A stretch of 64,000 bases of DNA, taken from Spirochaetota bacterium. GTDB taxonomy: Bacteria > Spirochaetota > Spirochaetia > Treponematales > UBA12059. The stretch is from NCBI GenBank assembly GCA_029547205.1, contig JAKPPT010000092.1, positions 24,626 to 88,625 on the forward strand, in the 5' to 3' direction. The position numbers and the translations under genes are program-made. Under the pieces are notes generated by a model. It worked only from the letters and a program-made list of their open reading frames with translations, was not told where the DNA came from and did no database searches. Below are positions 18,734 through 63,645 of the stretch, in pieces; positions within the stretch are counted from its first letter, which is position 1; each line of letters starts with the position of its first letter.

Positions 18734-18772
18734 ATGACCAGGTATTCATAGTTTACATGGGTACCTGGTCAT
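18734..18772. repeat. Inverted pair of repeat-family variants (ATGACCAGGTA-17 nt-TACCTGGTCAT)
   Basis: Perfect 11-bp arms. The core CCAGGTAT/ATACCTGG is shared with the main 13-mer family. Confidence 0.6.
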
Positions 18773-21645: not shown

Positions 21646-21774
21646 AAACACCTCACCTTTTTTAGTATGTATGAGTACTTGTATTGTACAATAGGAACCA
21701 TGCTTGAACAATCAAAAAATCTGTACTACAACTACATATGCATATAAAAAGAATACTGTTGCAGAGGTGCATGC

Positions 21775-39215: not shown

Positions 39216-39392
39216 ATCTTGTCTCCAAACCTGCATACGATGCGGCACAATGCGGTAATCGGCATATCTTGTCTCCAAACCTGCATACGATGCGGCACAA
39301 TGCGGTAATCGGTACCAGGTATCCAATGCATGCTGTAATTCTGTACCAGGTATTGTGCAGTACCAGGTGCCAGGTTTTCTTAAATCTAGCAT
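39213..39392. repeat. 50-bp tandem duplication (x2) followed by four degenerate core-motif copies
   Basis: Unit catatcttgtctccaaacctgcatacgatgcggcacaatgcggtaatcgg at 39213-39262 and 39263-39312. It is followed by GGTACCAGGTATC, TGTACCAGGTATT and AGTACCAGGTGCCAGGTTTTC. Confidence 0.85.
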
Positions 39393-42631: not shown

Positions 42632-44086
42632 ATGAATAACGATCAGCAACAAAACATTTCTACTCCAAGTCAAACTATACTCAAACACAACAAATTCTGG
42701 CTTACAGTAGAAGGCGCTGCATCATCTGTATATCTCATTTTAACACAGGGTGCTCTTTTTACTGCTATTGCGATCTATTTCAAACTTACGACATTCTGGC
42801 TTTCTGTTACCACTGCATTTCCACTTGTGTTCCAGGTATTCCAGCTTATTGCTCCAACCATTATTAAACGGTCAAAAAACAGAGTAAGGCTGATGATTAT
42901 TTTCAATGCTGGCCGATTCATCTGGTTTATTCCGCTTGCAACTTCGCTCTTTGGCTTTTCATCTGCCTTAGAATTCATTGTGATTTTTGCAGTGAGCCAG
43001 CTCGCAAACGCTCTTGCTGGCAATGTGTGGGTGGGATTAAGCCGGGACCTCATTCCAGAACACGAACGCGGAAAATTTCTTGGGAGAAGAAATGTTGCAA
43101 TCAGCATTACCACAATGATTTCGACATATATCTATACTGCTATTCTCGATATACTCAGCAAACCTTTATCCATCATTATAACTATACTCATTGGCATGAT
43201 TGCTACAATCATTTCAATCATTGCCACGTTCCCAATTCGAGATATCAGTCTCCAGGAAATCAGCCAACAAAGCACAGGAAACCTGGCACCAGGAACAACA
43301 TTCGAAGAAAAATCGGCTGGAAACCTGGCACCAGGAACAAATAAACAAAAAACAGATTCTATAAAATCAAACTTGGTTTATTTATTTAGCTACAACAAGC
43401 AGTTGCTCCAGGATAGCAACATCAAACGATTTGTAATTGCAATGTTCGCGTGGAACTTTATTCTTCAACTAACTGCTCCGTTTTTTGCATATCACCAGAT
43501 CACCAATCTTTCTATGTCGATGCGATTGATCGGAATTACTTCCATCCTTACGAGTCTTCTTTCCATAATTTTTTACAGGATTTGGGGTGTTTTAGGTGAT
43601 AAACTTGGCCATAAATCAGTATTGGTGACAGGTATCAATATCGTTAGCCTTATCCCTATGCTATGGTTCTTTATGGGAAAACCGCTTTGGCCATACATGA
43701 TGGGTGTTGATGTACTCTTAACCGGACTTGGATGGTCAGCTATCGATCTTGGCATTTTAACCTTTGGAATGGAAATCGGTGGTAAAAACTCCAGTGCATG
43801 CTTTGCTCTCGCTAATGCAGGAGCGGGCATCAGCGGACTCGCTGGAGCTGTAGTAGGAGGCTTCCTGGGACAAAAACTTAAGCCAATAAACCTGACACTC
43901 TGGTCTTTCGAAATCAATGGTCTTCAATTTTTATTTCTTGTTGGTGGACTTTTACGGTTTTTAGGTCTTGCTCTCTTCAAAAAAGTACAGGCAGCTAACT
44001 ATGCAAAACCAGGTGTCATGGTTACGAATGTGCTTTCAATTATTGCACGACGCTTTGCAATCCGTCCCGCTGAACTTGATGAGTAA
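42632..44086 (+). CDS. MFS transporter with repeat-derived central-loop insert
   Basis: 484 aa with multiple TM helices. The central loop contains GNLAPGT twice. Confidence 0.7.
   Translation: MNNDQQQNISTPSQTILKHNKFWLTVEGAASSVYLILTQGALFTAIAIYFKLTTFWLSVTTAFPLVFQVFQLIAPTIIKRSKNRVRLMIIFNAGRFIWFIPLATSLFGFSSALEFIVIFAVSQLANALAGNVWVGLSRDLIPEHERGKFLGRRNVAISITTMISTYIYTAILDILSKPLSIIITILIGMIATIISIIATFPIRDISLQEISQQSTGNLAPGTTFEEKSAGNLAPGTNKQKTDSIKSNLVYLFSYNKQLLQDSNIKRFVIAMFAWNFILQLTAPFFAYHQITNLSMSMRLIGITSILTSLLSIIFYRIWGVLGDKLGHKSVLVTGINIVSLIPMLWFFMGKPLWPYMMGVDVLLTGLGWSAIDLGILTFGMEIGGKNSSACFALANAGAGISGLAGAVVGGFLGQKLKPINLTLWSFEINGLQFLFLVGGLLRFLGLALFKKVQAANYAKPGVMVTNVLSIIARRFAIRPAELDE
43277..43340. repeat. 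Two in-CDS copies of GGAAACCTGGCACCAGGAACAA
   Basis: Identical 22-mers at 43277 and 43319, 42 nt apart. They contain the perfect palindrome CCTGGCACCAGG. Confidence 0.9.
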
Positions 44087-48715: not shown

Positions 48716-49452
48716 GAAACCTGCTCCTTATCATCCACAAGTTCCAAAAATAGATTTTCAAGTGACGTATCTTTTCCTTTAAGTTCACGAAGCTCATCAA
48801 GCGAACCGGTGAATAGTATCTTCCCCTTATTGATAATAGCAAGCTTATCGCATACCCGCTCTGCAACCTCCATTACATGCGTCGAAAAGAAAACACACTT
48901 ACCGGCATTAGCACGTTCCCGCATGAGCTCTTTGAGCTTAAATGCCGCATGCGGATCAAGCCCAACCATCGGTTCATCGAGAAGCCAATTTTGCGGATCT
49001 GGAAGCAAACTTCCCGCAATAATAAGCTTTTGCTTCATACCGCGAGAATAACTTGCTATTTTAGCATTGAGCACATCTGCAATTTCGAATATCGTCGTGT
49101 ACCGTTCTATCGCAGCATACCTGGCACCTTTGCCTAAATCATAAACATCTGCGATAAAATTGAGATATTCAATACCTTTTAACCGGCTAAACAACTCAGG
49201 ATTATCTGGTACAAACCCTATAGCATGTTTCGCCTTCAAATCATCGGAGATGGTAGAATGACCATTGACAAGAACCGTACCCTCATCCGCTTGCAGCGAG
49301 CCGGTTATTAATTTAAGCGTTGTTGTTTTTCCAGCTCCATTTGGCCCCAAAAAACCAAAAATACAGCCATCAGGTACTGTAAGGCTAATAGCATCAAGCG
49401 CTTTTGTTTTTGCTCGGTTATACGTCTTGCTCACCGCATTAATCTCAATCAT
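48712..49452 (-). CDS. ABC transporter ATP-binding protein
   Basis: GPNGAGKTT, YSRGMKQKL and WLLDEP. Confidence 0.9.
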   Translation of the reverse strand: MIEINAVSKTYNRAKTKALDAISLTVPDGCIFGFLGPNGAGKTTTLKLITGSLQADEGTVLVNGHSTISDDLKAKHAIGFVPDNPELFSRLKGIEYLNFIADVYDLGKGARYAAIERYTTIFEIADVLNAKIASYSRGMKQKLIIAGSLLPDPQNWLLDEPMVGLDPHAAFKLKELMRERANAGKCVFFSTHVMEVAERVCDKLAIINKGKILFTGSLDELRELKGKDTSLENLFLELVDDKEQVS

Positions 49453-49476: not shown

Positions 49477-49727
49477 GAAACCTGGCACCGCAATCTATCG
49501 ATACCTGGCACTGCAAAGTTCAAATCAGTCCAAAGGGAACCCTGACACCGCTTGCACAGCCAGAACGCGCCCGCTGACTGAAACATGGGGAAACCTGGCA
49601 CCGCAGACACTTTCCGCAGGCACTTTAGGAAACCAAGGGCTCGCTTTTGATACCTGGCACCTAACTGGCTAATGGCTCATGGCTTGTTATACCTGGCACC
49701 TAACTGGCTACTGGCTCATGGCTTGTT
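49477..49727. repeat. Intergenic repeat cluster A (~6 copies, CCTGGCACC orientation)
   Basis: GAAACCTGGCACCGC appears twice and GATACCTGGCACTGC once. A 39-bp unit, ATACCTGGCACCTAACTGGCTA(A/C)TGGCTCATGGCTTGTT, appears twice. Confidence 0.9.
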
Positions 49728-49750
49728 TATTTAACTGCCGCTTAATTTAG

Positions 49751-50338
49751 CTATAAAGCAATTCTTCCTCTAAACGAATGTGCAAGAGTGATTCTATCTG
49801 CATATTCAAGATCACCCCCAAATGGAATACCAGTTGCAAGTTTCGTTACACTTACTGAATATTCAGCAAACAACTTCTTTATATACAAAGCGGTTGTGTC
49901 TCCTTCCACAGTTGGATTTGTGGCTATAACCAATTCCTTAACCTGAAGCCTTTGAACACGTTTTTGCAAAAGGTCGAGCGTTAGCGCCTCTGGTCCTACT
50001 CCATCGAGTGGTGAAATGAGCCCTCCAAGTACATGGTATAGCCCATGAAATTCTTGCGAAGCCTCAATTGTCAATACATCTTGGGGCTGCTCTACCACAC
50101 AAATTATTGATTTATCCCGCAAAGGCGATGAACAAATAGGACAAGGATCTGTTTCGGTATATGACCCGCATTCTGGACAAAAGTGTACAACACTTTTTAA
50201 CTGCCTGATTGATTCAGCAAGAGCTTCTGCAAAATCATAATTTGAACGCAAAATATAGAATGCCATTCGCGATGCTGTTTTTTTCCCTATTCCAGGCAGC
50301 CGAGACAATAGATTTACCGTATCATCAAGCGTTTTCAT
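49751..50338 (-). CDS. recR: Recombination protein RecR
   Basis: LPGIGKKTA helix-hairpin-helix, C4 zinc finger and Toprim region. Confidence 0.92.
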   Translation of the reverse strand: MKTLDDTVNLLSRLPGIGKKTASRMAFYILRSNYDFAEALAESIRQLKSVVHFCPECGSYTETDPCPICSSPLRDKSIICVVEQPQDVLTIEASQEFHGLYHVLGGLISPLDGVGPEALTLDLLQKRVQRLQVKELVIATNPTVEGDTTALYIKKLFAEYSVSVTKLATGIPFGGDLEYADRITLAHSFRGRIAL

Positions 50339-50339
50339 A

Positions 50340-50696
50340 CTATTGTTTGAACAAATTATTAAAAATTGAGCTGAGATCTTCTGGATTTATTCCACCTGGC
50401 AATCCTGCAGCATTGGCAGGAATAATATCTTTCATTGCTTCTTTTAATTTAGCCTGAGCGTCATTATATGCTGCTTTAAACAAGTCTTGAACAATAACAA
50501 CATCTCCTGAAGCAAAAATCTCTGGTGACAGGTATACATTTGTTATTTGCATAGCACCATTGAGCGTTACAGATGCCATATTCCCCCCAGCAGTTCCTGT
50601 CACACTCACCTTAGCTAATCGCTCCTGAGTTTCTTTGACTTGCTGTTGTAAAAGCGCTGGATTGCTAAGCATCTTAAAAAGATCCGATATTTCCAT
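50340..50696 (-). CDS. ybaB: Nucleoid-associated protein YbaB/EbfC
   Basis: 118 aa, positioned between dnaX and recR. The sequence style fits the family. Confidence 0.8.
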   Translation of the reverse strand: MEISDLFKMLSNPALLQQQVKETQERLAKVSVTGTAGGNMASVTLNGAMQITNVYLSPEIFASGDVVIVQDLFKAAYNDAQAKLKEAMKDIIPANAAGLPGGINPEDLSSIFNNLFKQ

Positions 50697-50700
50697 ATTG

Positions 50701-52563
50701 TTATTCCTCCGTCAATCGAGTTCCCCTGAATACCTTTTCAACTATTTGCGCAGGACTTTCAGTTGTACCAGAATCTTCTATCTCATGAGATTCTTGACTA
50801 TGCTCGGTTGAATTTTGCACAACATATGCATGTATTTGAATAACTCGATTAAACACTTTTTGTAAAATAGGATTGATTACCGAACTTTCTGCATTAATTT
50901 TATCTGCCTCAAAATTTGAAACACAGGATACTTCTAACCTGTCACCCTTTATCGACCAATCTTCTGTTCTGGAAAGAATCGCATTAAGCATCAAATTTTG
51001 CTTACCCAGTGCAGTAATTACCCTCTCCTTTTCAGCTATTGCAGTATCAGTAGCAGAATCTGACTGTTCAGAAATATAACCACTGGAATCTACACTTTTG
51101 CCGCGAGAAACCGCGATTGAAACTGCGCCGATGCCTGGTTTAACTGCACTGGTGCCAGGTTTCCCATCACCGATGCCAGGTTTAGTTGCGCTAGCAGTGC
51201 TAACTGTACTGGTACCAGGTTTTGAATCGACTGCTGATGCACCTCGGCTACTACCCACCATGTTGGCCTCGCTGGCCAGTTCAACGGTGCCAGGTTTAGT
51301 TGCGCTGGAAACTGCGCTGGTGCCAGGTTTCCCATCAGGTTTATTTGATTTATCCACTGAAGAAGCTTGAGAACTCAATGAGATTAGTTTTTCTGCAATT
51401 CCACTTGCGTTTTGAGTATTCCCTTCACTAAGAGCATGTTTCAAATTGGTTAAGATTTCAAAAATCTCAGAACGTGAAATAAGCGCTCGTATTTCACAGA
51501 GCATTACCAATGCAAGTTCTATTTCATATCGGGGGTTAACGCTGTACCGCATGTTTCTATAGATATCAAGAAGCACAGCAAGCATCCGTTCCAGGTGTCG
51601 TGTTTCGAGCGCTGACACTTGTTCCGGCACTGATTCTTTTGAAAACCCTAAAAGTTCCTGTTTCTCGACACCAGCTTTTATAAAAAGGAGCGTACGAACA
51701 TATTGAATAGTATCAACTAAGAGCTGCTCAATTGAAACACCTGAAGATACAATTGATTCAACAAGTTCGATTGTTTTAGCCTTATCTCCTTGTGCTACCG
51801 TGCTTATCAGCATACCAATTCGTTCAGAACCGACAATACCTAGTTTATCCTGAATTACCGACAGCCTGATATGTCCCTCAGAAAATGAAGCCACTTGATC
51901 AAACATGGTATACGCATCGCGGAGAGAACCAGTTGCCTCTCGCGCTATCCACATGAGCGCATCATCATCAGCCACAATACCTAAATCCTGCGCTGCCGAT
52001 GCAAGCCTTTCCTTAATAACAGCAAGCGGAATCAATCTAAAAACAAATTGCTGACACCGGCTGCGGATGGTAGCTGGTACCTTATGCAGTTCAGTCGTTG
52101 CAAATATAAAAACAATATATGGCGGAGGTTCTTCGATAGTTTTCAACAGTGCATTAAAGGCACTGTTAGAGAGCATGTGTACTTCATCAATAATGTAGAT
52201 TTTATATTTAGAGAAGTTAGGCGGGAAAAGCACCTCATCTTTAATTTGACGTACATTATCAACTGACGTGTTGGACGCACCATCAATTTCAATAACATCC
52301 AATGACGCACCTTTGGTGATAGCATGACACGAATTGCATACCCCGCATGGTTCTGCGGTTGGCCCTCGTTCACAATTGAGAGATTTTGCAAGTATTCGTG
52401 CTGTACTTGTTTTACCGCAACCTCGAGGACCAGAGAAAAGATATGCATGCGCTATCCTTCCCGATTCTATTGAAGCCTTGAGCGTAATCGAAACAAAATC
52501 CTGTCCCGCCAGCTCATCAAAATTCTGAGGCCGCTTGCGGTTTGCTGTCACTTCATACGCCAT
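50701..52563 (-). CDS. dnaX: DNA polymerase III subunit gamma/tau, with repeat-derived insert
   Basis: GPRGCGKTS, zinc module CERGPTAEPCGVCNSC, and DEVHML. The variable region carries KPGT repeats. Confidence 0.93.
   Translation of the reverse strand: MAYEVTANRKRPQNFDELAGQDFVSITLKASIESGRIAHAYLFSGPRGCGKTSTARILAKSLNCERGPTAEPCGVCNSCHAITKGASLDVIEIDGASNTSVDNVRQIKDEVLFPPNFSKYKIYIIDEVHMLSNSAFNALLKTIEEPPPYIVFIFATTELHKVPATIRSRCQQFVFRLIPLAVIKERLASAAQDLGIVADDDALMWIAREATGSLRDAYTMFDQVASFSEGHIRLSVIQDKLGIVGSERIGMLISTVAQGDKAKTIELVESIVSSGVSIEQLLVDTIQYVRTLLFIKAGVEKQELLGFSKESVPEQVSALETRHLERMLAVLLDIYRNMRYSVNPRYEIELALVMLCEIRALISRSEIFEILTNLKHALSEGNTQNASGIAEKLISLSSQASSVDKSNKPDGKPGTSAVSSATKPGTVELASEANMVGSSRGASAVDSKPGTSTVSTASATKPGIGDGKPGTSAVKPGIGAVSIAVSRGKSVDSSGYISEQSDSATDTAIAEKERVITALGKQNLMLNAILSRTEDWSIKGDRLEVSCVSNFEADKINAESSVINPILQKVFNRVIQIHAYVVQNSTEHSQESHEIEDSGTTESPAQIVEKVFRGTRLTEE
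51130..51331. repeat. Six in-CDS motif copies inside dnaX
   Basis: GATGCCTGGTTTA 51130, GGTGCCAGGTTTC 51151, GATGCCAGGTTTA 51172, GGTACCAGGTTTT 51211, GGTGCCAGGTTTA 51286, GGTGCCAGGTTTC 51319. Confidence 0.9.
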
Positions 52564-52579
52564 GCGTTTAGCATATCAT

Positions 52580-53070
52580 GGTGCCAGGTTTATAGTAAAC
52601 TAGGCAACAGGTTATTGTTATTTTTGTTTTTTTGGTACCAGGTATCAGATTTTGTTTGCTGCGCCAAGCCATTGGCGAAAACCTTCGGTGCCAGGAAAAC
52701 CTTCGGTGCCAGGTATCTAATAGCTGAATGTTTCATGAAAACCATTGGTGCCAGGTAATACATGGCCAAGTCTTTGAGAAGATTTTAGGTGTCAAGTTTC
52801 CCTAGCATATAGGTTTATGATAACATTTTCCCAGCATGCAAATGCACATGGCCAAGTATGCGGTGCCAGGTTTCTGATAGTTAAGTATACGGTGCCAGGT
52901 TTCTGATAGCTACCAGGTTTCTGATAGCTATAGCTAAGTATAGCTAAGTATGCGGTGCCAGGTTTCTGATAGCTAAAATATTGGATTTATGACACGTTTT
53001 ATTGACTACACGTAATCCGACAAGCAGTCCGGTGCCAGGTATCTCTAGATACGGTGCCAGGTATCTCTAG
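52580..53070. repeat. Intergenic repeat cluster B (~12 copies, GGTGCCAGG orientation)
   Basis: Begins 17 nt upstream of the dnaX ATG. Includes local tandems such as CGGTGCCAGGTTTCTGATAGCTA and CGGTGCCAGGTATCTCTAGATA (x2). Confidence 0.9.
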
Positions 53071-53159
53071 ATATAACCTCTATCTATGTAGCAATAATAT
53101 GGCAATACGAGAAGAACAGACAATTAAACGGGGAAAATTACAAATTAGCTATTAACCGT

Positions 53160-53292
53160 GTGGGTTCCTGCAACCATAAGGTCAGGCTTGGCATGGCACA
53201 AGATCATTCTGCTTACCGTTGCTTCCTTCCGGACCTGGCGGGGTTAGGCAGCGAACCTTTGCATGGAGCCTGACCATATTGTTGCAGGAAAA
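53160..53292 (-). ncRNA. ffs: Signal recognition particle RNA (small/4.5S type)
   Basis: The minus strand reads ...CCAGGUCCGGAAGGAAGCAACGGUAAGCAG..., matching the conserved domain IV core. The flanking arms UUCCUGCAAC..GGUCAGGCU and AGCCUGACC..GUUGCAGGAA pair into one long hairpin. Classic position upstream of dnaX. Confidence 0.8.
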
Positions 53293-53360
53293 TAGTACCG
53301 CCCATTTTGATATTAGTAGTCTTGCTATCAGTTATTAGCGGCTATTGATATTTTAAAATA

Positions 53361-53448
53361 CGGAGAGAGAGGGATTTGAACCCTCGGTGCCCTTTAGGAG
53401 CACACACGACTTCCAATCGTGCACCTTCGGCCGCTCGGTCATCTCTCC
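53361..53448 (-). tRNA. tRNA-Ser (anticodon GGA)
   Basis: Minus strand: GGAGAGA acceptor stem, anticodon stem CACGA/TCGTG with loop TTGGAAG, long variable arm, and T-arm GGTTCAAATCC. CCA is not encoded. Confidence 0.88.
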
Positions 53449-53630
53449 AAAATCAGTCTTGATAATAACAAAGCAAGCCACTTTTGGCAAGCCAATGAGC
53501 ATTAAAACAAGCCATTAGATCAAAAAAGCGTGAATCTTACCGAAGTTGAAACAATATCTAAAATTTACTAAAGATTTTGGTCATTGAAATGACCACTCAT
53601 AAAAGGTTTTAATGCAAAGATAAAAGATAA

Positions 53631-54173
53631 TTATGTTGCAATAACTGAACTAAAGTCATAGTTTTCTTGAGAAAATTTTTCATATAGATTTTTAATTTCA
53701 TCGCTTATCCAATTTAAAAATATTTTAAAGCCCTTTTTAAAAAATAACAAACCACTCCAAAACCACTCGTCTGGCCTTTTTACCATTTTTGCTTTCACAG
53801 GATTTAAAATTATATATTTCAAAACACGTTCTACATCCTGTATTCTCATCAACGGCTCTGAAAAATATCTACCAGCCCAAAAATGTCCTACTAAATCGTT
53901 AATTGCATTAAATTTCTTTGCAAACGTTACTAAAAGCCTTTGCATTATCTTAGGAAGCTCCTTACAATCCCTTGGTTTAATAAGCAGATGAATATGATTA
54001 TCCATTAAAGTAAAACCTTCTACATTAAACTGATACTCTTTTTGCAACTTTTTTAATATTTTCATAAACATCTTTTTTAGACCAGAACGTTGCAGAAAGT
54101 AAGTTTGATAATTCGTTCGCGCTGTAATATGATACGTTGCCCCTGGAATTAGCAATCTCGGTTTTCTTGGCAT
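53631..54173 (-). CDS. rayT: REP-associated tyrosine transposase (RAYT; IS200/IS605-like Y1 HUH family)
   Basis: 180 aa. YHITARTN, HUH motif DNHIHLLIKP, GHFWAGRYFSEP, and the catalytic-Tyr motif KYIILNPVKAKMV. Single gene with no IS ends or tnpB. Visibly more AT-rich than its neighbours. Confidence 0.8.
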   Translation of the reverse strand: MPRKPRLLIPGATYHITARTNYQTYFLQRSGLKKMFMKILKKLQKEYQFNVEGFTLMDNHIHLLIKPRDCKELPKIMQRLLVTFAKKFNAINDLVGHFWAGRYFSEPLMRIQDVERVLKYIILNPVKAKMVKRPDEWFWSGLLFFKKGFKIFLNWISDEIKNLYEKFSQENYDFSSVIAT

Positions 54174-54307
54174 TTTGATTCCTCCTAATTAAAGGTAAAA
54201 ATATTAAGTTTTCTCCTACTTTAATTGATTAAATTTAAGTGATTAAACAATCACATCTAAATATACTTGCTGGCAAACTCTCTTGCATGCAGAGAAATCC
54301 ATGCAGT

Positions 54308-54469
54308 GAAACCTGACACCATAAATCCAGAAACCTGACACCATAATTTTTTAAGTTCTAGTTTTGGTGGCAGGTTTCTAATTTTCTACAAGAAGTGCGC
54401 TTATTGGTGCTTGTGAAGCATTTAGCTGTGATTCGTACCATGTTTCCATGTTTCTCGGTGCCAGGTTTC
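54308..54469. repeat. Repeat cluster C upstream of RAYT (2 copies in each orientation)
   Basis: GAAACCTGACACC at 54308 and 54330. GGTGGCAGGTTTC at 54366 and GGTGCCAGGTTTC at 54457. Confidence 0.85.
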
Positions 54470-54532
54470 CCTCTAGCCAATAACCAAAGATATGCGCCCA
54501 TTGGCGCCTGTGAGGCGCCTAACCGGGCGCAC

Positions 54533-54566
54533 ATAAAAAAAGCTGCCTACTTTCGTAGGCAGCTTC
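54533..54566 (-). terminator. Rho-independent terminator of the OMP gene
   Basis: Minus strand: AAGCTGCCTAC-GAAA-GTAGGCAGCTT followed by TTTTTTT, about 28 nt after the stop. Confidence 0.85.
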
Positions 54567-54593
54567 GCTGTTACTTACTAGATTTCTAAAGAA

Positions 54594-55625
54594 TTAGAAA
54601 TTGAAAATGCATAATGCATAAACATTGTAAGTAGAATCATCAGCAACACCAGCCGTTGTTGACATATCATAGTTCATACCAAGTTCTATAGAACCTTTTT
54701 TAAGCGCATAGGTAACGGATGGATTAATATTAAATGCCCATGTTTCTTCTGCAGCTCCTAAAGCATAAGTTAAACTGAGTTTTGGAGTATATTTATCTAT
54801 TGTATAAGAAACTGCAGGATTCACTGTAAGAGCTAATGCTGTATTAGGTGCAGTAACATCAGCATATATATCCTGGTCTAAATACAGCTCGAGAGTAAGC
54901 GCATCCATTGCATAGGCAAAATATTCTGAAACAAAGAAAGCTTCTCTGCCAGCGGTATCGTCACCTAAATTGAATACTTTTCCTTCAATATATACATCTA
55001 AATTCTCAATGGCTGAAATATATGCACTAAACATAAGATCGCTGAAAACTGCTGCATCCTCTGCATTTACTCTTGGATCAAGATCATAAACCAGGGCAAA
55101 ATCACCAATTCCTTCTGCAGAATATGAAACACCAATTGCAGTGTCTTTCAGAACATTTACTGGAGGAACAGTACCTGCAATACTCATTGGCATAAAGGTA
55201 CCTATTTTTAATCCTGCGATGGGTGAAACTATTGTTTCAAGACCAGTTGCTCCATCAAAATTACCAAACGCCCATACAGCACCTTTAGCAAATGTATAAT
55301 CGCCAAGCTTGCCTACATTGAACTGTAGTAAGCCATCAAACAATTTTGCCCAACCAAAAGCGCGAGTAAATGCTGGTGCAGTGAAATCGTTGCTCTGGAG
55401 ACGGAAAGCAATTCCCATGTCTTCATTTGAATAAGAACCATTCAGGCGTACACGGGTTCCAGGTGTTCCATAATAACGTATCAATTGCGTAGTGTCATTT
55501 GCAGAATCATACCAGAAACCAGTGTATACAGCACCACTCCACTTGAGTGCTGGTGCTGCATCCTGCGCAAATACAAATGCGCCAACGAGAGCAAAGGCTA
55601 TAAGGAAAGCTAGTGCTTTCTTCAT
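54594..55625 (-). CDS. Outer-membrane beta-barrel/porin-like protein
   Basis: 343 aa with signal peptide MKKALAFLIAFALVGAFVFAQ. Alternating beta pattern. C-terminal ...CIFNF. Strong RBS and terminator. Confidence 0.65.
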   Translation of the reverse strand: MKKALAFLIAFALVGAFVFAQDAAPALKWSGAVYTGFWYDSANDTTQLIRYYGTPGTRVRLNGSYSNEDMGIAFRLQSNDFTAPAFTRAFGWAKLFDGLLQFNVGKLGDYTFAKGAVWAFGNFDGATGLETIVSPIAGLKIGTFMPMSIAGTVPPVNVLKDTAIGVSYSAEGIGDFALVYDLDPRVNAEDAAVFSDLMFSAYISAIENLDVYIEGKVFNLGDDTAGREAFFVSEYFAYAMDALTLELYLDQDIYADVTAPNTALALTVNPAVSYTIDKYTPKLSLTYALGAAEETWAFNINPSVTYALKKGSIELGMNYDMSTTAGVADDSTYNVYALCIFNF

Positions 55626-55762
55626 GAATGTCCTCCTTAAAGGATTTTTTTAGTAAGCTGGGGGCACTGGTGCACGACCCTGTCTCCCCATACTTTTGTT
55701 GTAAGTATACCAGCACGAATTTTAGCTGTCAAGTTTTTTTTTCAGGAATAACGTAACCTTTC

Positions 55763-55915
55763 GGTGCCAGGTATCAGGTATATCAAATATTGTCAGGTAT
55801 CAGGTATTTCAAATATTGTTATGTAATGATGTATTGTTGAGCAGCCAGCGAGTGCCAGGAATATTACCAAACTTATTTCCAGACTTATTTCAGCGGTGCC
55901 AGGTTTCGCCCCTGG
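55763..55915. repeat. Intergenic repeat cluster D
   Basis: CGGTGCCAGGTATCAGGTAT, GTCAGGTATCAGGTAT, GAGTGCCAGGAAT, and CGGTGCCAGGTTTCGCCCCTGG at 55894-55915. Confidence 0.85.
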
Positions 55916-56159
55916 ATTTTTCTCTACGGGTGCGTCGATATTTGACATACCAAGTATAAAATCAGTAAACTAACGGTTGCATAACAGCTGCGATTTGGCT
56001 TAGTTTTAATTTTTATTTAGTTTTACCCTATTTTGCCGAGTATAAAATCAGTAAATTAAAAAACCGTGCATTTATCGATAATCCATTATAAAATTACATA
56101 AGACGAGGCTTGATTCAACACAGGCCTGGATATTTTGTTCGATTGGAGCTATTGATAGT

Positions 56160-57788
56160 ATGATTAAGCTATTTTTCCCGCTAAAACACCGCGAAAATCT
56201 CCCTATTGAATTCATTAAACGTGTACCTATACTCATCAACACAAATTTTATACTTATTCTTTATTTTGTGTTCGCTTCATTTACACGGTATCGAGCTGAC
56301 CCAGAAGCTACTCGTATATTTTTTATTGCAGTACTGGCTTCATGCTCCTCATTTGTAATATCGCTGATGCTCATCCGATTCAAGCATTATATCATTGCAT
56401 CGACCTTCTCAATGTTGGGGATTTTTTTAAACAGTCTCTGGATTGGGATTTTGCTACCGCTCACTAACTACATGGATTTATATCGATTTTCAGTCTATAT
56501 TATCGCTGCAAGCACGGTAAATATCTTACTTTCCTTCAGGCGGCTTCAAATATGGCTCTATAGCATTACAACTTTTGCAGCATTCGTGTGTGTTTCGCTG
56601 TTTTACTATGCGCCTCGTTTTGGCGGTTTTACGGGTGAAATTAGAACGATATTTACCACGCTTTCAATGTTATACATTGCCGTTACAATTGTTTTCTTCA
56701 TTATCAACAAAATCTCTACAGATCTACTGACCGTAGCTAATGTGGAAATGCAAAAAAACAAAGCAAAGGCTGATGCTTTAAACGAGCTCATTCGCAATAC
56801 TAAAAACACCATGAAAGTCGGCGCTGATCTTGTGGAATATGCAGGACAGAGTACCGCTAGCGCTAATCAAATTAAAAACGAACTCCTCTCGATTGCAGAC
56901 TCAGCTCGAAAACTTTCCACCGATGCAACATGTGCCGATGAAACAAACCGTGGCATCGTCGAGTTTGCCCAAAAAATGCAGGAAGCAGTAGACAATCAGA
57001 ACTCATTTCTCCAGGAAACAAGCAGTGCTGTTACAGAAATTATGACTACAATCCAGAACATAGCGCAGCTTGCTGAGCAAAAAAAGTCGATAATGAATGC
57101 GGTTGTCAATAAAATTGAAGCACAGGGCAATGAAATAAAAAAACTTACCGAGGGCTTTGAAGCAATTCAGGAATCTTCTCGCAGTGTACTGTCAGTCATA
57201 TCGAGCATTCTCGATATTTCAGAGAAAACAAACATGCTCGCAATGAACGCCTCGATCGAGGCTGCACATGCCGGTGCAGCAGGTAAAGGCTTTGCAGTCA
57301 TTTCAGGAGAAATTCGCAAACTCTCTTCAGAAACACAGGTAAGCACGCAACTCATCAGTCAGGCACTCTCTCGCAATCAGGAAGTCATCGATACCGCATC
57401 AAACTTGATACATCGGTATACCGCAAGCCTTAAAGATGTCATTGAGGACGTTCGCGATACTTTTAATTCATTTGAAGAAATTATTGCCGGCTTGAGCGAA
57501 ATCAATATAGGGGCAAAAGAACTAACCACCGCAACAGGCAACATGGTCAACATATCAGCAGAGACCCGAGAAACCATAAAAGGCGTAGCCACGCAGATTT
57601 CGGACAGCTCCGCAAGCATTGAACACATCTCATCATTTGCATGCGCACTCGACGAGCGCATCAACAAACTCAAAGAGGACTTTGCCCGCATCGAAGCCAT
57701 TATCCAGCAAATCCGAAACATCGGCGATCTCAACATCGAGCAAATCAAACGCCTCGAGACCGAACTCGATACCATTACCGGCAGGTAA
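56160..57788 (+). CDS. Methyl-accepting chemotaxis protein with multi-TM N-terminal domain
   Basis: 542 aa with the highly conserved signalling hairpin [35 protein letters not shown]. Confidence 0.88.
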
Positions 57789-57797
57789 TCTTAATCA

Positions 57798-59221
57798 AAT
57801 TAGCAACTCACTAGCGCCTCGCAGAAACCAAAACCTGGCACCTTTCTCCCCATTCTCTCAGATCCAACGAAACATGGCACCCTTTGGCCCTCCGCAACCG
57901 GGGACCCTTTATTGAGAAACCTGACACCGTTCTCCCCATTCTCTCAGACCCAACGAAACATGGCACCGTTCTCGCAGACCTCGCCGAAGAGCTGCGCCTA
58001 TCAAACCGAAACCTGGCACCATTCCCGCAAACCTAAAACCTGGAACCTGGAAACCTGGCACCGATCTCGCAGTTCTCAAAACCTGGAAACCTGGCACCGT
58101 TCTCGCAAACCTAAAACCTGGAACCTGGAAACCTGGCACCGATCTCGCAGTCCTCGCCGAAGAGCTGCGCCCATCAAACCGAAACCTGGCACCGTTCTCG
58201 CAGACCTCGCCTGGAAACCTGGCACCTTTCTCCCCATTCTCTCAGACCCAACGAAACCTGACACCTTTCTCGCAGTCCTCGCCGATTAAGAGCCGCGCCC
58301 ATCAAACCGAAACCTGAGGAAACCAACCTGGAAACCTGGCGCCCTTTATTGGGAAACCTGGCACCGTTCTCGTAGTCCCGATTCGAAACCTGGCACCCTT
58401 TGGCCCTCTGCAAATTAGCAACTCACTAGCGCCTCGCAGAAACCAAAACCTGGAAACCTGGAACCAAATGAAACATGGAAAGCAACCTGGAACCCGGAAA
58501 CCTGGAAACCAACCTGGAACCCGGAAACCTGGCACCAAATACTTTGAGACGCCCACCGCAACATGGGACCCCTTATTGAGAAACCTGGCACCTTTCTCCC
58601 CGTTCTCTCAGACCCAACGAAACCTGGCACCCTTTGGCCCTCTGCAACCTGGGACCCGGAAACCTGGAAACCTGGCGCCCTTTATTGGGAAACCTGGCAC
58701 CGTTCTCGTAGTCCCGATTCGAAACCTGGCACCATTCCCGCAGACATCGCCGATTAAGAGCTGCGCCCATCAAACCGAAACCTGGCACCCTTTGGCCCTC
58801 CGCAACCTGGCGCCCTTTATTGAGAAACCTGGCACCGTTCTCGCAGACATCGCCGATTAAGAGCTGCGCCTATCAAACCGAAACCTGACACCATGGCACT
58901 TGATTTCTTTCAAACCGAAACCTGGCACCGTTCTCGCAGTCCCGATTCGAAAACCTGGCACCGTTCTCGCAGTCCCGATTCGAAAACCTGGCACCGTTCT
59001 CGCAGTCCTCGCCGAAGAGCTGCACCCATCAAACCGAAACATGGAACCTGGCACCCTTTGGCCCTCCGCAACCTGGGACCCCTTATTGAGAAACCTGGCA
59101 CCGTTCTCGCAGTCCCGATTCGAAACCTGACACCATGGCACTTGATTTCTTTCAAACCGAAACCTGGCACCACGGCACTTCAGGCACTTATTTCTTAAGG
59201 CACCATGGCACTTGATTTCTT
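57798..59221. repeat. ~1.4 kb single-orientation array of GAAACCTGGCACC modules (about 30-35 copies by hand count)
   Basis: Every module starts with the core and carries one of about four tail types. Includes a 33-bp tandem (x3) at ~58915-59013. A higher-order repeat, AAATTAGCAACTCACTAGCGCCTCGCAGAAACCAAAACCTGG, occurs at 57798 and 58413. Confidence 0.95.
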
Positions 59222-59349
59222 AAAAAAATCTATTATTCTTTATTTGTGGAGTTTGTTTTGCTGTTTGTATTTGACAACTTGATTATGATAGTTCTATCAT
59301 ATATAGTAGATATAAAATATCAAACAATATCATTTGCAAGAGGGGTACC

Positions 59350-59901
59350 ATGACAAATAACGATATTGTCCCTGGTTTCGATGATGAAAAAGATGACAGC
59401 CTCAAAATACGTCTTCAAAAAGTCGATGAAGTGGAAAACTGTATCGCTATGTATCTTACAGGTTATATCGATACATACAATTCTATTTTCTTCCAGAAAC
59501 GGATCAATAAAGCTATTGAAGCAGGCTTTAATAAGCTCATTTTTAACTGTGCAGCTTTAAACTACGTTTCATCAACCGGTATTGGATCTTTCACAGCATT
59601 TCTTAAATCGGTTAAACCTCGCGGTGGAGATATAGTACTATTCGAAATTCAACCAAAAGTGTACGAAGTATTCCAACTCCTGGGCTTTTCACAATTTTTT
59701 AATATCCGAGACAGCCTTGATGATGCTATTCTCTTTTTCAAGCAAGGCACCACGGTATCAACACAATCTGTATTCCCTAAAATTTTTAACTGCCCTATCT
59801 GCAATAAAAAGCTCAAAGCTGCAAAACCCGGCAGATTCCGCTGTTCGGAATGTAAAACAATTCTTGCAATTGATAATCAGGGACAGGTTTTCCTGGGTTA
59901 A
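59350..59901 (+). CDS. STAS-domain (anti-sigma-factor antagonist-like) protein with C-terminal zinc ribbon
   Basis: 183 aa. NYVSSTGIGSF resembles the SpoIIAA phospho-Ser loop. C-terminal CPIC...CSEC. Confidence 0.65.
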   Translation: MTNNDIVPGFDDEKDDSLKIRLQKVDEVENCIAMYLTGYIDTYNSIFFQKRINKAIEAGFNKLIFNCAALNYVSSTGIGSFTAFLKSVKPRGGDIVLFEIQPKVYEVFQLLGFSQFFNIRDSLDDAILFFKQGTTVSTQSVFPKIFNCPICNKKLKAAKPGRFRCSECKTILAIDNQGQVFLG

Positions 59902-59923
59902 CTACTATACAAGGAGCTAAAGC

Positions 59924-60310
59924 ATGGCTGATATAAACACGATAGAAACCTTTCTCATCGACAACAATATTGGTTTTAAAGAGCTCGACCCAACCACACT
60001 CTATATCGAAGATGCAGCTAATTCAATTCCTGGACTCTTTATCGCTGTAAACGATCCAATCGTCGTCGTCAAAGCACGGGTTATGACACTGCCAAACGCT
60101 CCTAACATTCAGTTTTTCAAAAAACTGCTTGAATTAAATGCAAAAGATCTACCTCATGGGGCATATGGCCTCGATGGTGATGATGTTGTGCTTGTCGATA
60201 CCTTAGAACTTAACACACTCGACAAAGAGGAACTCATGGCATCGATAGATTCAATCAGTTTTGCACTGGTAAACCATTATTCAATCTTAAAAAAAACGAT
60301 TACTGCATAA
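59924..60310 (+). CDS. YbjN/CesT-like small acidic protein
   Basis: 128 aa. Composition and length are typical of YbjN-type chaperone-like proteins. Weak assignment. Confidence 0.4.
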   Translation: MADINTIETFLIDNNIGFKELDPTTLYIEDAANSIPGLFIAVNDPIVVVKARVMTLPNAPNIQFFKKLLELNAKDLPHGAYGLDGDDVVLVDTLELNTLDKEELMASIDSISFALVNHYSILKKTITA

Positions 60311-60340
60311 ACATGCAGACATAGTAAAGGGGGCATTACA

Positions 60341-61042
60341 ATGGGAATATTTGATCGTCTGAAAACCTTAATTTCTTCAAATATCAATGACTTGATTTCC
60401 AAAGCAGAGAATCCAGAAAAAATGCTTAACCAGCTCATTCTCGATATGAATCAGCAAATGGTTGAATCAAAAAAAGCTGTAGCAATGGCTATTGCTGATG
60501 AAAAACGGCTTGAGCGTGAAATGCTCGAACAAAAGCGCCAGGCAGAGGATTGGGAAAAGAAAGCCATGCTCGCAGTCAAAGCTGGCAGAGATGATCTTGC
60601 AAAAGAGGCACTGCTCAGAAAGGCTGAGGCAGAGAATTACTACAATCAACTCAAACCACAGTGGGAATCTCAACGAGCATCGGTTGAAAAACTCAAGGAG
60701 TCACTGCGAGAACTTCAAAACAAAATTGATGAAGCAAGCCGTAAGAAAAATATTCTTATTGCCCGAGCTAAACGAGCAGAAGCACAGGAAAAAATTCAAA
60801 AAACTATGGGCTCGCTTCAAAACAACAAAAGCGCTTTTGAAACATTTGACCGTATGGCCAAAAAAGTTGATGAAATGGAAGCTAGAATTGAGGCTCAAGC
60901 TGAACTAGCTGATCTTTCAAGTTCTGCATCACTAGAAAAAGAATTTGCTAAGCTAGGCAATTCTTCTGCTTCAGCAGACCTGTTGCTCGAAGAACTCAAA
61001 CAAAAAATGCAGCAGGAAGGCCAGACCGGCACTCAAAATTAA
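60341..61042 (+). CDS. pspA: PspA/IM30 family protein
   Basis: MGIFDRLKTLISSNINDLISKAENPEKMLNQLILDM is the family's N-terminal signature. The rest is a long coiled coil. Confidence 0.88.
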   Translation: MGIFDRLKTLISSNINDLISKAENPEKMLNQLILDMNQQMVESKKAVAMAIADEKRLEREMLEQKRQAEDWEKKAMLAVKAGRDDLAKEALLRKAEAENYYNQLKPQWESQRASVEKLKESLRELQNKIDEASRKKNILIARAKRAEAQEKIQKTMGSLQNNKSAFETFDRMAKKVDEMEARIEAQAELADLSSSASLEKEFAKLGNSSASADLLLEELKQKMQQEGQTGTQN

Positions 61043-61162
61043 GCCCCGGTATTCTTCTTAGCACCGCAAGTAAATTACCTCATTAAAAATACGAGCCAAC
61101 AGCCATATGAGCCAACAGCCATGCCTTAATAAAATGCCCTAATAAAAATCTTGGAGCCGTTT

Positions 61163-61580
61163 GGTGCCAGGTTTCAAAATAGCCATTTGGTGCCAGGTTT
61201 CGTTCCAAGTGCAGATATAGAGAAAAACCGGTGCCAGGTATCGCTATAAATCCCAAAGTCTGTGACAAGCAAGAAGGCCGGTGCCAGGTTTCCCATTTGT
61301 GTCATTTGGAGGTGCCAGGTATCCCCACTGGTACCCTACAGCTTCAACAAAAGTTAGCAATGGAGCGATTGGTGCCAGGTATCCCCACTGGTACCCCACA
61401 GCTTCAACAAAAGTTAGCAATGGAGCGATTGGTGCCAGGTATCAGTATGGGATTGGTGCCAGGTATCGCTATACCAGGTTTCCCATTTGTGTCATTTGGA
61501 GGTGCCAGGTATCCCCACTGGTGCCCCACAGCTTCAACAAAAGTTAGCAATGGAGCGATTGGTGCCAGGTATCAGTATGG
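61163..61580. repeat. Intergenic repeat cluster F (~11 copies, GGTGCCAGG orientation) with 60-bp tandem units
   Basis: The 60-bp unit GGTGCCAGGTATCCCCACTGGTACCC(T/C)ACAGCTTCAACAAAAGTTAGCAATGGAGCGATT occurs at 61311, 61371 and 61501. Confidence 0.92.
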
Positions 61581-61625
61581 AGCGGCCTATTTACAAAATA
61601 CCGTAATACTGTACAATGAAGATTA

Positions 61626-62798
61626 ATGAAATTTGCCTCAAGAATATTGCACCCTGCGGTATATATTTGCTGGTTTCTGGTTTTAGTTTTCTCAGCTTGC
61701 AAACAAGCAGAAACCACCACAAAACCTCCGAATCCTCATGAATCGGTCAAATTTTCTGTGACACTATCAAAAACAGAACCTGAAATTGTCTATTTTGATG
61801 CAGACAGGCCACTCAACGAAGCTTTTTCTCTTACGAAACCTGGCACCAAAGCGTTATTACCTTATCCACTCCAAAAGCGGCCTGCGCTTTTTGTTCCGTT
61901 GGACAAATCCTCAATACTTCTCTTAGTTAACAAAGTAGGCTTTGTTCAACTCACTTTTACAGCAAACGCAGATGTATCTACAACGATACAATTTGATTCT
62001 CCAGTCTCTGTTGAAGGTGTACCAGTAAACCAGTACTCTGCAGGTTCAGTTTGGCAAACGAATAATCACCAATATCTACTATTGTATAAAGATCATGTAC
62101 TCGACACTGACTGGGCAGCAACAGTTTTATTTGAATTTTCTGGTGACACTGTCTCACGGATAGAAATCCCACCACATCCTGAAAATAAACGCTATGAACC
62201 GTACTGGATTTTCCCAACAAGCGAAAACACCTGGCTTATCCAATATCGTTACATAATTGGAGACCGATCGTATACAACATATGCTTCATGGGACCGTAAA
62301 CACAATAAACTTTCGGAGCTCACACGCACCTCTTTTGAACGCCAACTCACTCCAATCACCTTTGAAAAAGCTCCTGCACCCATTCGTCTCATAGCTGAAC
62401 ATATATCAGAACCCGTTCTATTAGAGTACCGTGATAGCAATGGAGCCATTCATTATATCAATAACAAAAATCTCGATGATGCTGTTCTTGGCATCGCAGA
62501 AACCAACAATTACGGCACTTTTGTCCTTCTGGAAGATGGCCGATACTGGATCGCTCGGGGACAGGTACCACCATCAGTTTCTTCATCTGAAAATCAAACA
62601 ATCACTCCGAAACAACAGCAATCAGCAATATCCTTTTCAGGAACACCACCAGTGACTATAGGGCAGGCTACTGTACCTGTTGATGATGTTCATTTTAGAA
62701 ATGCAATATTGACTGATACCGTGTTTATCAGCACCTGGGAAGAAAATGGTTTTCCAGAGACGGGAATGAGCGGTCTCTTTCTTTTTCAGCTTCCGTAA
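61626..62798 (+). CDS. Hypothetical lipoprotein
   Basis: 390 aa with a lipobox-like LVFSAC. Contains one exact motif copy at 61835-61847, read as KPGT. Confidence 0.55.
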   Translation: MKFASRILHPAVYICWFLVLVFSACKQAETTTKPPNPHESVKFSVTLSKTEPEIVYFDADRPLNEAFSLTKPGTKALLPYPLQKRPALFVPLDKSSILLLVNKVGFVQLTFTANADVSTTIQFDSPVSVEGVPVNQYSAGSVWQTNNHQYLLLYKDHVLDTDWAATVLFEFSGDTVSRIEIPPHPENKRYEPYWIFPTSENTWLIQYRYIIGDRSYTTYASWDRKHNKLSELTRTSFERQLTPITFEKAPAPIRLIAEHISEPVLLEYRDSNGAIHYINNKNLDDAVLGIAETNNYGTFVLLEDGRYWIARGQVPPSVSSSENQTITPKQQQSAISFSGTPPVTIGQATVPVDDVHFRNAILTDTVFISTWEENGFPETGMSGLFLFQLP

Positions 62799-62868
62799 TG
62801 TTTCATAATATTGTAAAACTCATTGAATCTATCATCGAGATGAGTATATAGTAAGATAAGAGGAAGCT

Positions 62869-63645
62869 ATGAAATATCGGTGCCAGGTATCAAAAAAGGT
62901 TTTCCGTTTATCAAAACATGCAATCAAAAAATATTTGTGCATCCTTGCTATTTTTTTAACATCGTATTCCGTTTTTGCCTTTGATATTACTCATGCAGGC
63001 GGATCACTCGGTGTGCTCATCATCAATAATACGGTTCCCGAATCAGCACCGAACCCGGTTGTAAATACCATTGGTGGATTTGCCAATTTTACATTTACTT
63101 CGGTGCCAGGTTTCGCCCCTGGTTCTTCGGTGCCAGGTTTCGCCCCTGGTTTTTTCCTCTCAACAGCTCTCGACATACTCTGGCTCAATTATGAAAACCG
63201 AGACGGTATTGCTGTGCCTACAGAAACAGAAACTGGTAACGGCAATAACGTTTTTGTTATCGGTTTACTGCTCGATGTACCGTTAGGATATGTATTTTAT
63301 TTTGGACCGCCTGTTACCGAATCATTACCGCATCGATTTTCAGCTACCTTACTTGCAGGCACATCTTTTTTATTTCGTATCTGCATGAATGGTGATACAA
63401 CCGAAGCTTATGCAAGCGTGATGGAACAAAACCGCATTGCTGTTGCCCAGTACCTCTGGGGGAATGGTAGGTGGTTTTATCCAATGATAAGCGGGAAATT
63501 CGGTATTGTGCTTCAAGAAACGTTTACATTCACAGTAGGCGCAAAGTGGTACATCCCCATATTCAATCTTTGGACAACCGATGATAATTCATTTTTCAAT
63601 GCAAGTATGCTGGCAATTCAGCTTGCAATGCAAATTTCCCTGTAA
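62869..63645 (+). CDS. Hypothetical exported/OM protein with repeat-derived segments
   Basis: 258 aa with a hydrophobic N-terminus. Motif copies at codons 3-8 (YRCQVS) and in SVPGFAPGSSVPGFAPG. Confidence 0.5.
   Translation: MKYRCQVSKKVFRLSKHAIKKYLCILAIFLTSYSVFAFDITHAGGSLGVLIINNTVPESAPNPVVNTIGGFANFTFTSVPGFAPGSSVPGFAPGFFLSTALDILWLNYENRDGIAVPTETETGNGNNVFVIGLLLDVPLGYVFYFGPPVTESLPHRFSATLLAGTSFLFRICMNGDTTEAYASVMEQNRIAVAQYLWGNGRWFYPMISGKFGIVLQETFTFTVGAKWYIPIFNLWTTDDNSFFNASMLAIQLAMQISL
63099..63149. repeat. Two in-CDS copies of TTCGGTGCCAGGTTTCGCCCCTGG
   Basis: Copies at 63099-63122 and 63126-63149, 27 nt apart. Their 22-mer core is identical to the intergenic copy at 55894-55915. Confidence 0.9.

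Follow-up and report, generated by a model that had tools for sequence, protein, structure and literature searches.

An Oriented 13-Nucleotide Repeat Clustered at a RAYT-Type Transposase Gene in a Spirochaete, Possibly a Variant of the REP-Like Families

Introduction

What kind of agent, if any, would write one 13-nucleotide (nt) word dozens of times into a short part of a bacterial genome, both between genes and within them? The question is raised by a 64-kb stretch from an uncultured Spirochaetota bacterium (GenBank assembly GCA_029547205.1, contig JAKPPT010000092.1, positions 24,626 to 88,625 of the forward strand), which was analyzed over its whole length and is called the window below. 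Its word, GAWACCTGGCACC, is present far beyond expectation, and an initial annotation likened it to repetitive extragenic palindromic (REP) sequences and to the inverted doublets (REPINs) that they form, with an uptake-type sequence or a binding-site array as other possibilities. Over 84 contiguous kb, we find the intergenic copies confined to six arrays around a single gene for a REP-associated tyrosine transposase (RAYT). We tentatively read the family as RAYT-linked and REP-like in an atypical form, with the 13-nt core as cleavage and joining site, a reading to which we give something short of even confidence. Nearly all that is known of REP sequences and RAYTs comes from Proteobacteria and from palindromic repeats. 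The present case extends that picture with an oriented, non-palindromic repeat that clusters at a transposase gene, differs in one base from one sister species to the other, and is remodeled in frame, at strain level, in the linkers of DnaX and of an ABC exporter.

Abundance and Distribution of the Core

The window contains 52 exact copies of GAWACCTGGCACC, where dinucleotide-preserving shuffles predict 0.01. With up to two mismatches there are 97, against 1.37 expected and five in the highest shuffle, which bears out the roughly 90 copies that had been counted by hand. An unbiased k-mer count ranks ACCTGGCACC (64 copies) first among the 10-mers of the window. In a position matrix built from all 97 copies, the conserved unit is exactly 13 nt long, with background composition directly outside it. 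The consensus is G-A-W-A-C-C-T-G-K-C-A-C-C, which is oriented and non-palindromic. Positions 4–8 (ACCTG) are essentially invariant both here and in the sister species described below; mismatches fall mostly at positions 1, 3, 9, and 10.

Copies with up to one mismatch were mapped over 84 contiguous kb made up of the window and 10 kb on either side (L142, L146). The 60 that stand between genes fall without exception into six intergenic regions at 49.45–61.63 kb, which hold 5, 8, 4, 2, 31, and 10 copies in order from A to F, so that each of the six clusters named from the letters alone is populated. The remaining 23 intergenic regions of the window hold no core, and the two 10-kb extensions hold no G-type core (CTGGCAC, as distinct from the T-type CTGTCAC). 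Seven cores occur in the first 43 kb, every one within an open reading frame (ORF), and the family is dense solely at 49.4–63.2 kb. Within the sequence reached, the core is a local word, not one spread evenly over the genome.

The clusters are not products of assembly. Proteins of the window have identical counterparts in many anaerobic-digester metagenomes and in metagenome-assembled genomes (MAGs) labeled Spirochaetia or Spirochaetales bacterium, and the arrays were recovered at 99%–100% identity in more than ten independent metagenome and MAG assemblies; they are therefore not chimeras. Gaps of 100 nt of N in three MAG scaffolds (L022, L024, L142) fall exactly within arrays A and E and the dnaX linker, from which it follows that these repeats break short-read assemblies.

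The arrays and clusters of the six intergenic regions are the following.

Array A, 49477–49727, plus strand: between recR and an ABC ATPase gene; 5–6 modules.
Array B, 52580–53070, minus strand: upstream of dnaX; 8–11 modules.
Cluster C, 54308–54469, no single strand: 5' flank of the RAYT gene; two GAAACCTGACACC (plus), GAAACCTGCCACC (minus), and GAAACCTGGCACC (minus).
Cluster D, 55763–55915, minus strand: two copies.
Array E, 57798–59221, plus strand: about 39 head-to-tail modules, between the stop codon of a methyl-accepting chemotaxis protein gene and the promoter of a STAS operon.
Array F, 61163–61580, minus strand: ten modules, including 60-bp units, with a GGTRCCAG partner on some cores.

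The arrays are mosaics, their modules each consisting of the universal core and a tail of 2–65 nt. The tail families differ by array (gttctcgcag... in E, aatcgctccattgc... in F, gcatacttagctatca in B); the core is identical throughout. Cores follow one another at irregular distances of 8 to 78 nt, without helical phasing. Since the tails are array-specific, local amplification by duplication is indicated. An identical core in arrays with unrelated tails further implies a sequence-specific agent acting in trans, for which local slippage or duplication is insufficient. A CRISPR locus was rejected, as the repeats keep no regular period, the would-be "spacers" belong to repeated families, and no cas genes occur in the locus.

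Similar arrays were sought more widely. A scan of genome contigs from species representatives, this species not among them, for two cores 8–38 nt apart gave 18 unrelated high-GC matches, probably coding Gly-Pro repeats. A scan of metagenome contigs with G/T-tolerant cores returned, among the matches listed, 108 of 109 loci on unrelated contigs, the other (L114) being the same locus. A protein search with a phantom array ORF, seeking further arrays, returned that ORF alone; array E showed no similarity to plasmids or phages, an Rfam search of the arrays gave zero matches, and one match among viral_contigs proved to be a coding repeat, not a relative of the arrays.

The RAYT Gene amid the Arrays

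The dense region surrounds a single RAYT gene, the only one in the 84 kb.

53631–54173, minus strand: RAYT-type Y1/HUH transposase gene, 180 aa, intact; HUH motif HIH, tyrosine motif YIILNP.

The protein matches Pfam Y1_Tnp (4.3e-16) and passes the NCBIfam equivalog model NF047646, REP-associated tyrosine transposase, with 87 bits against a cutoff of 80. Its top match in the PDB is E. coli TnpA_REP (4ER8, E 2.9e-4, residues 6–141); the IS200/IS605 transposase TnpA of ISDra2 matches more weakly (E about 0.6).

The 5' extragenic flank of this gene contains the top 13-mer and 14-mer of the window (35 and 19 copies), and the best 16-mer of the flank occurs five times in the 64 kb. In the 3' flank, up to the tRNA-Ser gene, the abundant repeat of the window was not found. 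All 60 intergenic copies lie between −4.2 and +7.5 kb of the RAYT gene. The 5' flank also carries an inverted doublet (54329–54379), whose 18-nt arms are 89% complementary and form an imperfect hairpin, mismatched at position 9 of the core. Folded as single-stranded DNA (ssDNA), the doublet reaches −14.6 kcal/mol (z −3.4), which none of 200 shuffles equaled.

Two RNA genes, for the signal recognition particle RNA and tRNA-Ser(GGA) (53177–53275 and 53360–53449, minus strand), stand between the RAYT gene and dnaX, so that the nearest cores of inverted orientation bracket a 1.4-kb segment with the RAYT gene and both of them.

Orientation, Folding, and Reading Frames

Outside that doublet the cores are direct repeats. 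Among neighboring core pairs (within 120 nt), 58 of 59 lie head-to-tail on the same strand, and the one inverted pair is that at 54330/54366, beside the RAYT gene. A local complementary partner accompanies about 4 to 10 of 65 cores; the copy at 55895 in cluster D has a 5-bp CCAGG/CCTGG stem. In folding, the array segments show no advantage over shuffles (z −0.6 to +1.2). These partner counts and fold tests rule out hairpin or REPIN structure as a general property of the copies, and the earlier impression that many of them carry a hairpin partner is not borne out.

The core contains no stop codon in any of the six frames, as had been pointed out, and the explanation that this gave for phantom ORFs stands. 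ORFs of 84–131 aa called inside the arrays (57619–59198 and 61231–61626; calls in L019–L027) have identical copies as their only homologues and are phantom ORFs, which the stop-free core makes possible. In practice the arrays thus both break MAG assemblies, leaving N gaps, and yield phantom ORFs annotated as proteins. The property is neither special nor conserved: 21%–34% of random 13-mers are stop-free in six frames as well, and the sister-species variant, GATACCTGTCACC, is not.

Copies inside Genes

The initial annotation placed copies in at least eight ORFs; we count 19 copies in nine, nearly all in linkers, loops, or N-terminal regions. Pro-Gly frames, KPGT or VPG(I/F), account for 14 of the 19, and where copies form arrays within an ORF their spacings are multiples of three. 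The principal sites are these.

51151–51331, minus strand: copies in the DnaX linker, in frame, KPGT four times.
36229–36358, plus strand: array in the linker between transmembrane and nucleotide-binding domains of an ABC exporter, in frame and antisense to the gene, VPGI four times; spacings of 33, 51, and 33 nt.
62879–63141, minus strand: three copies in a 258-aa ORF.
43278–43332, plus strand: two copies in the central loop of a major facilitator superfamily (MFS) transporter, NLAP twice.
39311–39378, minus strand: two copies with one mismatch each in a second ABC exporter gene, within its first 27 codons or 5' leader.
49116–49128, plus strand: single copy with one mismatch in a conserved ABC ATPase gene.
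61835–61847, plus strand: single exact copy in a 390-aa ORF, KPGT.
20765: copy in hppA, in frame (GKPGT) in all strains.

A One-Base Change between Sister Species

A sister species is represented by one syntenic locus of 20 kb (L029, GCA_964630305.1), whose genes are 76%–88% identical to those of the window and whose RAYT is 83% identical. Its arrays occupy the same intergenic regions in the same orientation; they are shorter and cannot be aligned with those of the window. The core there is ACCTGTCACC: the 20 kb hold 21 T-type and six G-type copies, against 64 G-type and four T-type in the window. The change is visible in protein, the DnaX linker reading KPGT in the window species and KPVT or IPVT, from ACCTGTCACC, in the sister.

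Isolated copies at orthologous sites behave less uniformly. Given as window type and sister type, they are (G,G) at four sites, (G,T) at two, and (T,T) at two. The (G,T) sites lie upstream of dnaX (the copy at 52580, 16 nt before the ATG) and in the ABC ATPase gene at 49116–49128, where the change replaces Ala by Asp; the (G,G) sites include the start and the interior of the 258-aa ORF and intergenic region D (the copy at 55763); the (T,T) sites lie in ybaB and the MFS gene. A concerted change is thus seen at two of eight isolated sites, which is not significant alone. Young copies in the arrays thus agree with the species type, old isolated ones being mixed, and turnover from a changing master sequence fits this pattern better than uniform selection at each site does. 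Genes have been remodeled as well: relative to the sister, the 258-aa ORF carries an in-frame duplication of a 27-bp module in the window species, and the MFS loop of the sister has an antisense copy (VPGF) where the window has sense copies, the loop being otherwise unalignable.

These data bear on three other explanations. The first is an array of binding sites for some other protein, in which selection for binding would keep the core, the one-base change would reflect co-evolution, and the arrays would grow by slippage. An asymmetric 13-bp core conserved without a flanking consensus is what such a protein would be expected to leave, as are fixed orientation and syntenic positions in two species; the dnaX copy switched from G to T with the species type, and concentration over about 12 kb resembles a nucleation zone. 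We nonetheless think this unlikely. The locus contains no partition, replication-initiator, or obvious regulator gene, the core spacing of 8 to 78 nt lacks helical phasing, up to 39 sites fill a gap that has no internal promoter-like site, copies in the protein linkers of nine ORFs are left unexplained, and isolated orthologous sites are not uniformly of the species type. Plasmid iterons and the centromeres of type Ib and II partition systems are likewise short direct repeats in one orientation, but their spacing is regular and rep or par genes adjoin them; in the present locus the repeats are irregular, stand among housekeeping genes, and occur in ORFs too, and no rep or par gene was found in the locus. 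YbaB/EbfC was considered as a candidate binding protein; its GTnAC site is present in the T-type core as GTCAC and absent from the G-type.

The second is an uptake-signal-like or other sequence-biased drive, in which DNA bearing the core would be favored in uptake, recombination, or repair. DNA uptake sequences and uptake signal sequences (DUS/USS) are words of 10 to 13 nt with one-base dialects, found in intergenic DNA and in tolerated frames within genes (PMC3630211). The one-base difference between the two species has the look of such a dialect, the prevalence of tolerated Pro-Gly frames among the ORF copies agrees with it, and copies lie in or near dnaX and recR. The uptake-type alternative of the initial annotation fits the dialects alone; the extreme local clustering speaks against it, and we regard it as very improbable. 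DUS and USS show an even spread of about one per kb and occur in either orientation or as inverted terminator pairs. The distribution here is the opposite, with none in 23 intergenic regions, no intergenic copies in the 20 kb of flanks, and 31 in one 1.5-kb gap, and the arrays are dense, single-orientation, and restricted to one locus. To our knowledge, moreover, no competence receptor has been described in spirochaetes.

The third is a set of sigma-54 promoter-like elements, suggested by the −24 element CTGGCAC within the core. Such promoters read TGGCAC-N5-TTGC, with GG and GC invariant. Many modules of array E read TGGCAC-N5-TCGC, and about 9 kb past the end of the window there is a gene for a sigma-54 activator. 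From array to array, however, the −12 region lacks conservation, and the arrays take no consistent orientation toward the genes beside them. We reject this explanation, giving it hardly any credence, because the sister core, CTGTCAC, lacks the invariant GG.

Module Gain and Loss among Strains

Strains of the window species are 99.7%–100% identical in the flanking genes, and the motif-linked differences among them are whole modules bounded by cores. In array A of strain L022, 149 bp are duplicated, the junction falling within GATACCTGGCAC. Array E occurs in alleles of 1561, 1606, and 1639 bp, with whole-module indels of 78 bp and 33 bp. In strain L020, dnaX has lost 21 bp in frame between two copies of TGCCAGGTTT, and the ABC-exporter linker (36150–36420) has one further 33-bp in-frame module (11 aa, VPGIHVQGGVS) in six other assemblies, absent from the window. 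Point differences number zero in 780 core bp and six in 3,229 non-core bp, figures too small for a test.

Two observations accompany these comparisons. The window is 100% identical to the JGI contig Ga0116252_10000958 (L160) over 43.6–64 kb, and that contig carries the extra ABC-exporter module; the window must therefore derive from another assembly or strain. At 61093–61124 a 16-bp tandem duplication, GAGCCAACAGCCATAT, which contains no core, is polymorphic among strains, so that the intergenic region is also subject to ordinary slippage.

Could slippage suffice? On such an account the arrays would be plain minisatellites, a few ancestral copies having been expanded by replication slippage and unequal crossing-over with neither a dedicated enzyme nor a binding protein. 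Every strain polymorphism is indeed a gain or loss of units between direct repeats, the array-specific tails speak for local amplification, and the unrelated 16-bp duplication is polymorphic in the same intergenic region as array F. Left unaccounted for are an identical 13-nt core in six arrays with unrelated tails and in nine ORFs besides, and the coordinated difference of G to T over all the arrays of the sister. As a full explanation, slippage therefore seems to us quite improbable.

A RAYT as Possible Agent

Judged by gene content, the nearest known counterpart is the system of REP sequences, the bacterial interspersed mosaic elements (BIMEs) built from them, and their RAYTs; by architecture it is the arrays of neisserial intergenic mosaic elements (NIMEs). 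E. coli TnpA_REP requires the REP hairpin for binding and cuts ssDNA at CC|T (the bar marks the cut) over hundreds of nucleotides, with TGCC|TGAT as type I site consensus; it catalyzes strand exchange, and models of BIME gain, loss, and diversification have been proposed from its activity (PMC3333891). Described REPs also form head-to-tail clusters reiterated with their flanking DNA, and some lie inside replication and repair genes (PMC3733652).

The present locus shares with E. coli TnpA_REP and the Pseudomonas REPINs a single RAYT gene with an abundant repeat in its extragenic flank, a repeat sequence specific to a lineage (here two species only), and clusters whose unit number varies between strains. 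It differs in that the repeat is 13 nt, oriented, and non-palindromic, with doublets almost absent and no GTAG/CGTC tag; in that REPs are dispersed over the genome in tens to hundreds of copies, whereas the copies here lie within about 12 kb of the RAYT gene as far as sampled; and in its host, a spirochaete. The unit is not an imperfect palindrome with a stem-loop of 20–40 nt, and the inverted doublets that prevail in REPINs and BIMEs give way here to same-strand pairs. Since membership of the REP/REPIN class fails on the palindrome or doublet and on the tag, we treat the family as a variant and not a member. The REP/REPIN-like suggestion of the initial annotation thus survives in the RAYT gene amid the dense region, which that annotation had missed, the top k-mer in its 5' flank, and the one inverted doublet, and falls in its structural part.

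NIMEs consist of dRS3 cores separated by diverse RS elements and are syntenic in related species with variable length; dRS3 is a proposed target of a site-specific recombinase, and NIMEs are reported as not observed outside Neisseria (PMC1797815). The arrays described here are similarly long and intergenic, with a short conserved core, variable spacer families, syntenic positions, and dynamic length. The differences are that dRS3 is a 20-bp inverted repeat (ATTCCC-N8-GGGAAT) and the core here, GAWACCTGGCACC, is not an inverted repeat, that NIMEs are dispersed over the genome, and that the recombinase belongs to a different family from RAYTs.

Three kinds of evidence suggest the link to the RAYT: the position of its gene, the analogy with its family, and the comparative pattern. 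For binding or cleavage of the repeat by this protein, the evidence is the analogy with CC|T cleavage by E. coli TnpA_REP, which would make the RAYT the agent and ACC|TG the putative cut site. The arrays might then be built as follows. The RAYT would bind an imperfect hairpin of REP type, for instance the doublet in the 5' flank of its gene, and would cut and rejoin ssDNA at nearby cores, at ACC|TG, a site comparable to the CC|T(G) sites of E. coli TnpA_REP. Core-to-core strand exchange, or copying of a rolling type, could add, delete, and shuffle modules of core and tail. The expected outcome would be head-to-tail mosaic arrays around the RAYT gene, together with in-frame copies in tolerant protein linkers. 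New copies would carry the current preference of the enzyme, young ones being species-specific (G in the window, T in the sister) and old isolated ones mixed. Such a mechanism would cover the invariant ACCTG, the head-to-tail mosaics, the module polymorphism, the clustering at the gene, and the species-specific young copies.

Several results weigh against a RAYT as agent. The palindrome or doublet by which REPs and REPINs are defined, and on which binding by E. coli TnpA_REP depends, is missing from nearly all copies, and the position matrix shows neither a GTAG nor a CGTC tag within the 13-mer or its flanks. Replication slippage would give module indels between 13-nt direct repeats just as well. 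The co-location of RAYT gene and arrays is statistically weak in the 84-kb sample (roughly 0.15 by chance), and the loci around RAYT-like homologues at 39% identity are without such repeats. Lastly, the RAYT gene of the sister (L029, 10001–10543) has an in-frame TGA at codon 102 (AGA to TGA, before the catalytic Tyr), yet the arrays are present; three other assemblies that carry this TGA are 100% identical and are not independent evidence. As the rest of that gene is conserved, its inactivation may be recent; the TGA reflects either such a recent loss or a stop codon that is read through.

With these points counted in, we hold to the RAYT-linked reading with the reserve stated at the outset. 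A more specific proposal is possible, if rather doubtful: that a RAYT-type HUH enzyme in Spirochaetota uses a linear, oriented 13-nt site in place of palindromic REPs, builds NIME-like mosaic arrays around its own gene, and writes the site in frame into linkers of DnaX and ABC exporters and into an MFS loop, with a preference that drifts between sister species. If true, this would add a new class of RAYT-repeat association, one from outside Proteobacteria, and provide a natural system for following array turnover, module by module, in metagenome time series. Should the RAYT link itself hold, it would widen the range of targets for domesticated Y1 transposases and offer a tractable model of array birth and death in wild populations.

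Other Observations at the Locus

Some features of the locus stand apart from this argument. Homologues of the neighboring 343-aa protein occur, without synteny, in organisms of 62%–67% GC, and their loci show no related repeats. A sigma-70 promoter-like site, TTGACA-18-TATCAT (11/12), lies at 59271–59300, just downstream of array E, ahead of the STAS/CesT-like/PspA operon; none was found within array E itself. A sigma-70 promoter upstream of dnaX with the core in its spacer was considered and is unsupported by a consensus scan.

The inverted pair once assigned to the family at 18734–18772 is five mismatches from the 13-mer and falls outside it. It is an inverted repeat with a 12-bp stem, ATGACCAGGTA...TACCTGGTCAT, downstream of a gene, and contains TACCTGG without CACC. 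Two unrelated metagenome contigs carry an identical or similar core in intergenic DNA: one of 33% GC (L096) has four ACCTGGCACC copies at 1440–1860, upstream of glyQ, and one of 50% GC (L115) has six tandem GGTGACAGGTATCG units at 1518–1620, downstream of an ABC ATPase gene.

Two lesions have broken the H+-pyrophosphatase gene hppA (19574–21711, minus strand) of the window strain: 2 nt inserted into a TG run (about 21080), and a nonsense change of GGA to TGA (about 20800). A connection with the motif copy at 20765 was rejected; that copy is in frame in all strains. Four other strains have an intact gene of 689 aa and another has a different lesion, a 1-nt deletion; the losses are independent inactivations within one species.

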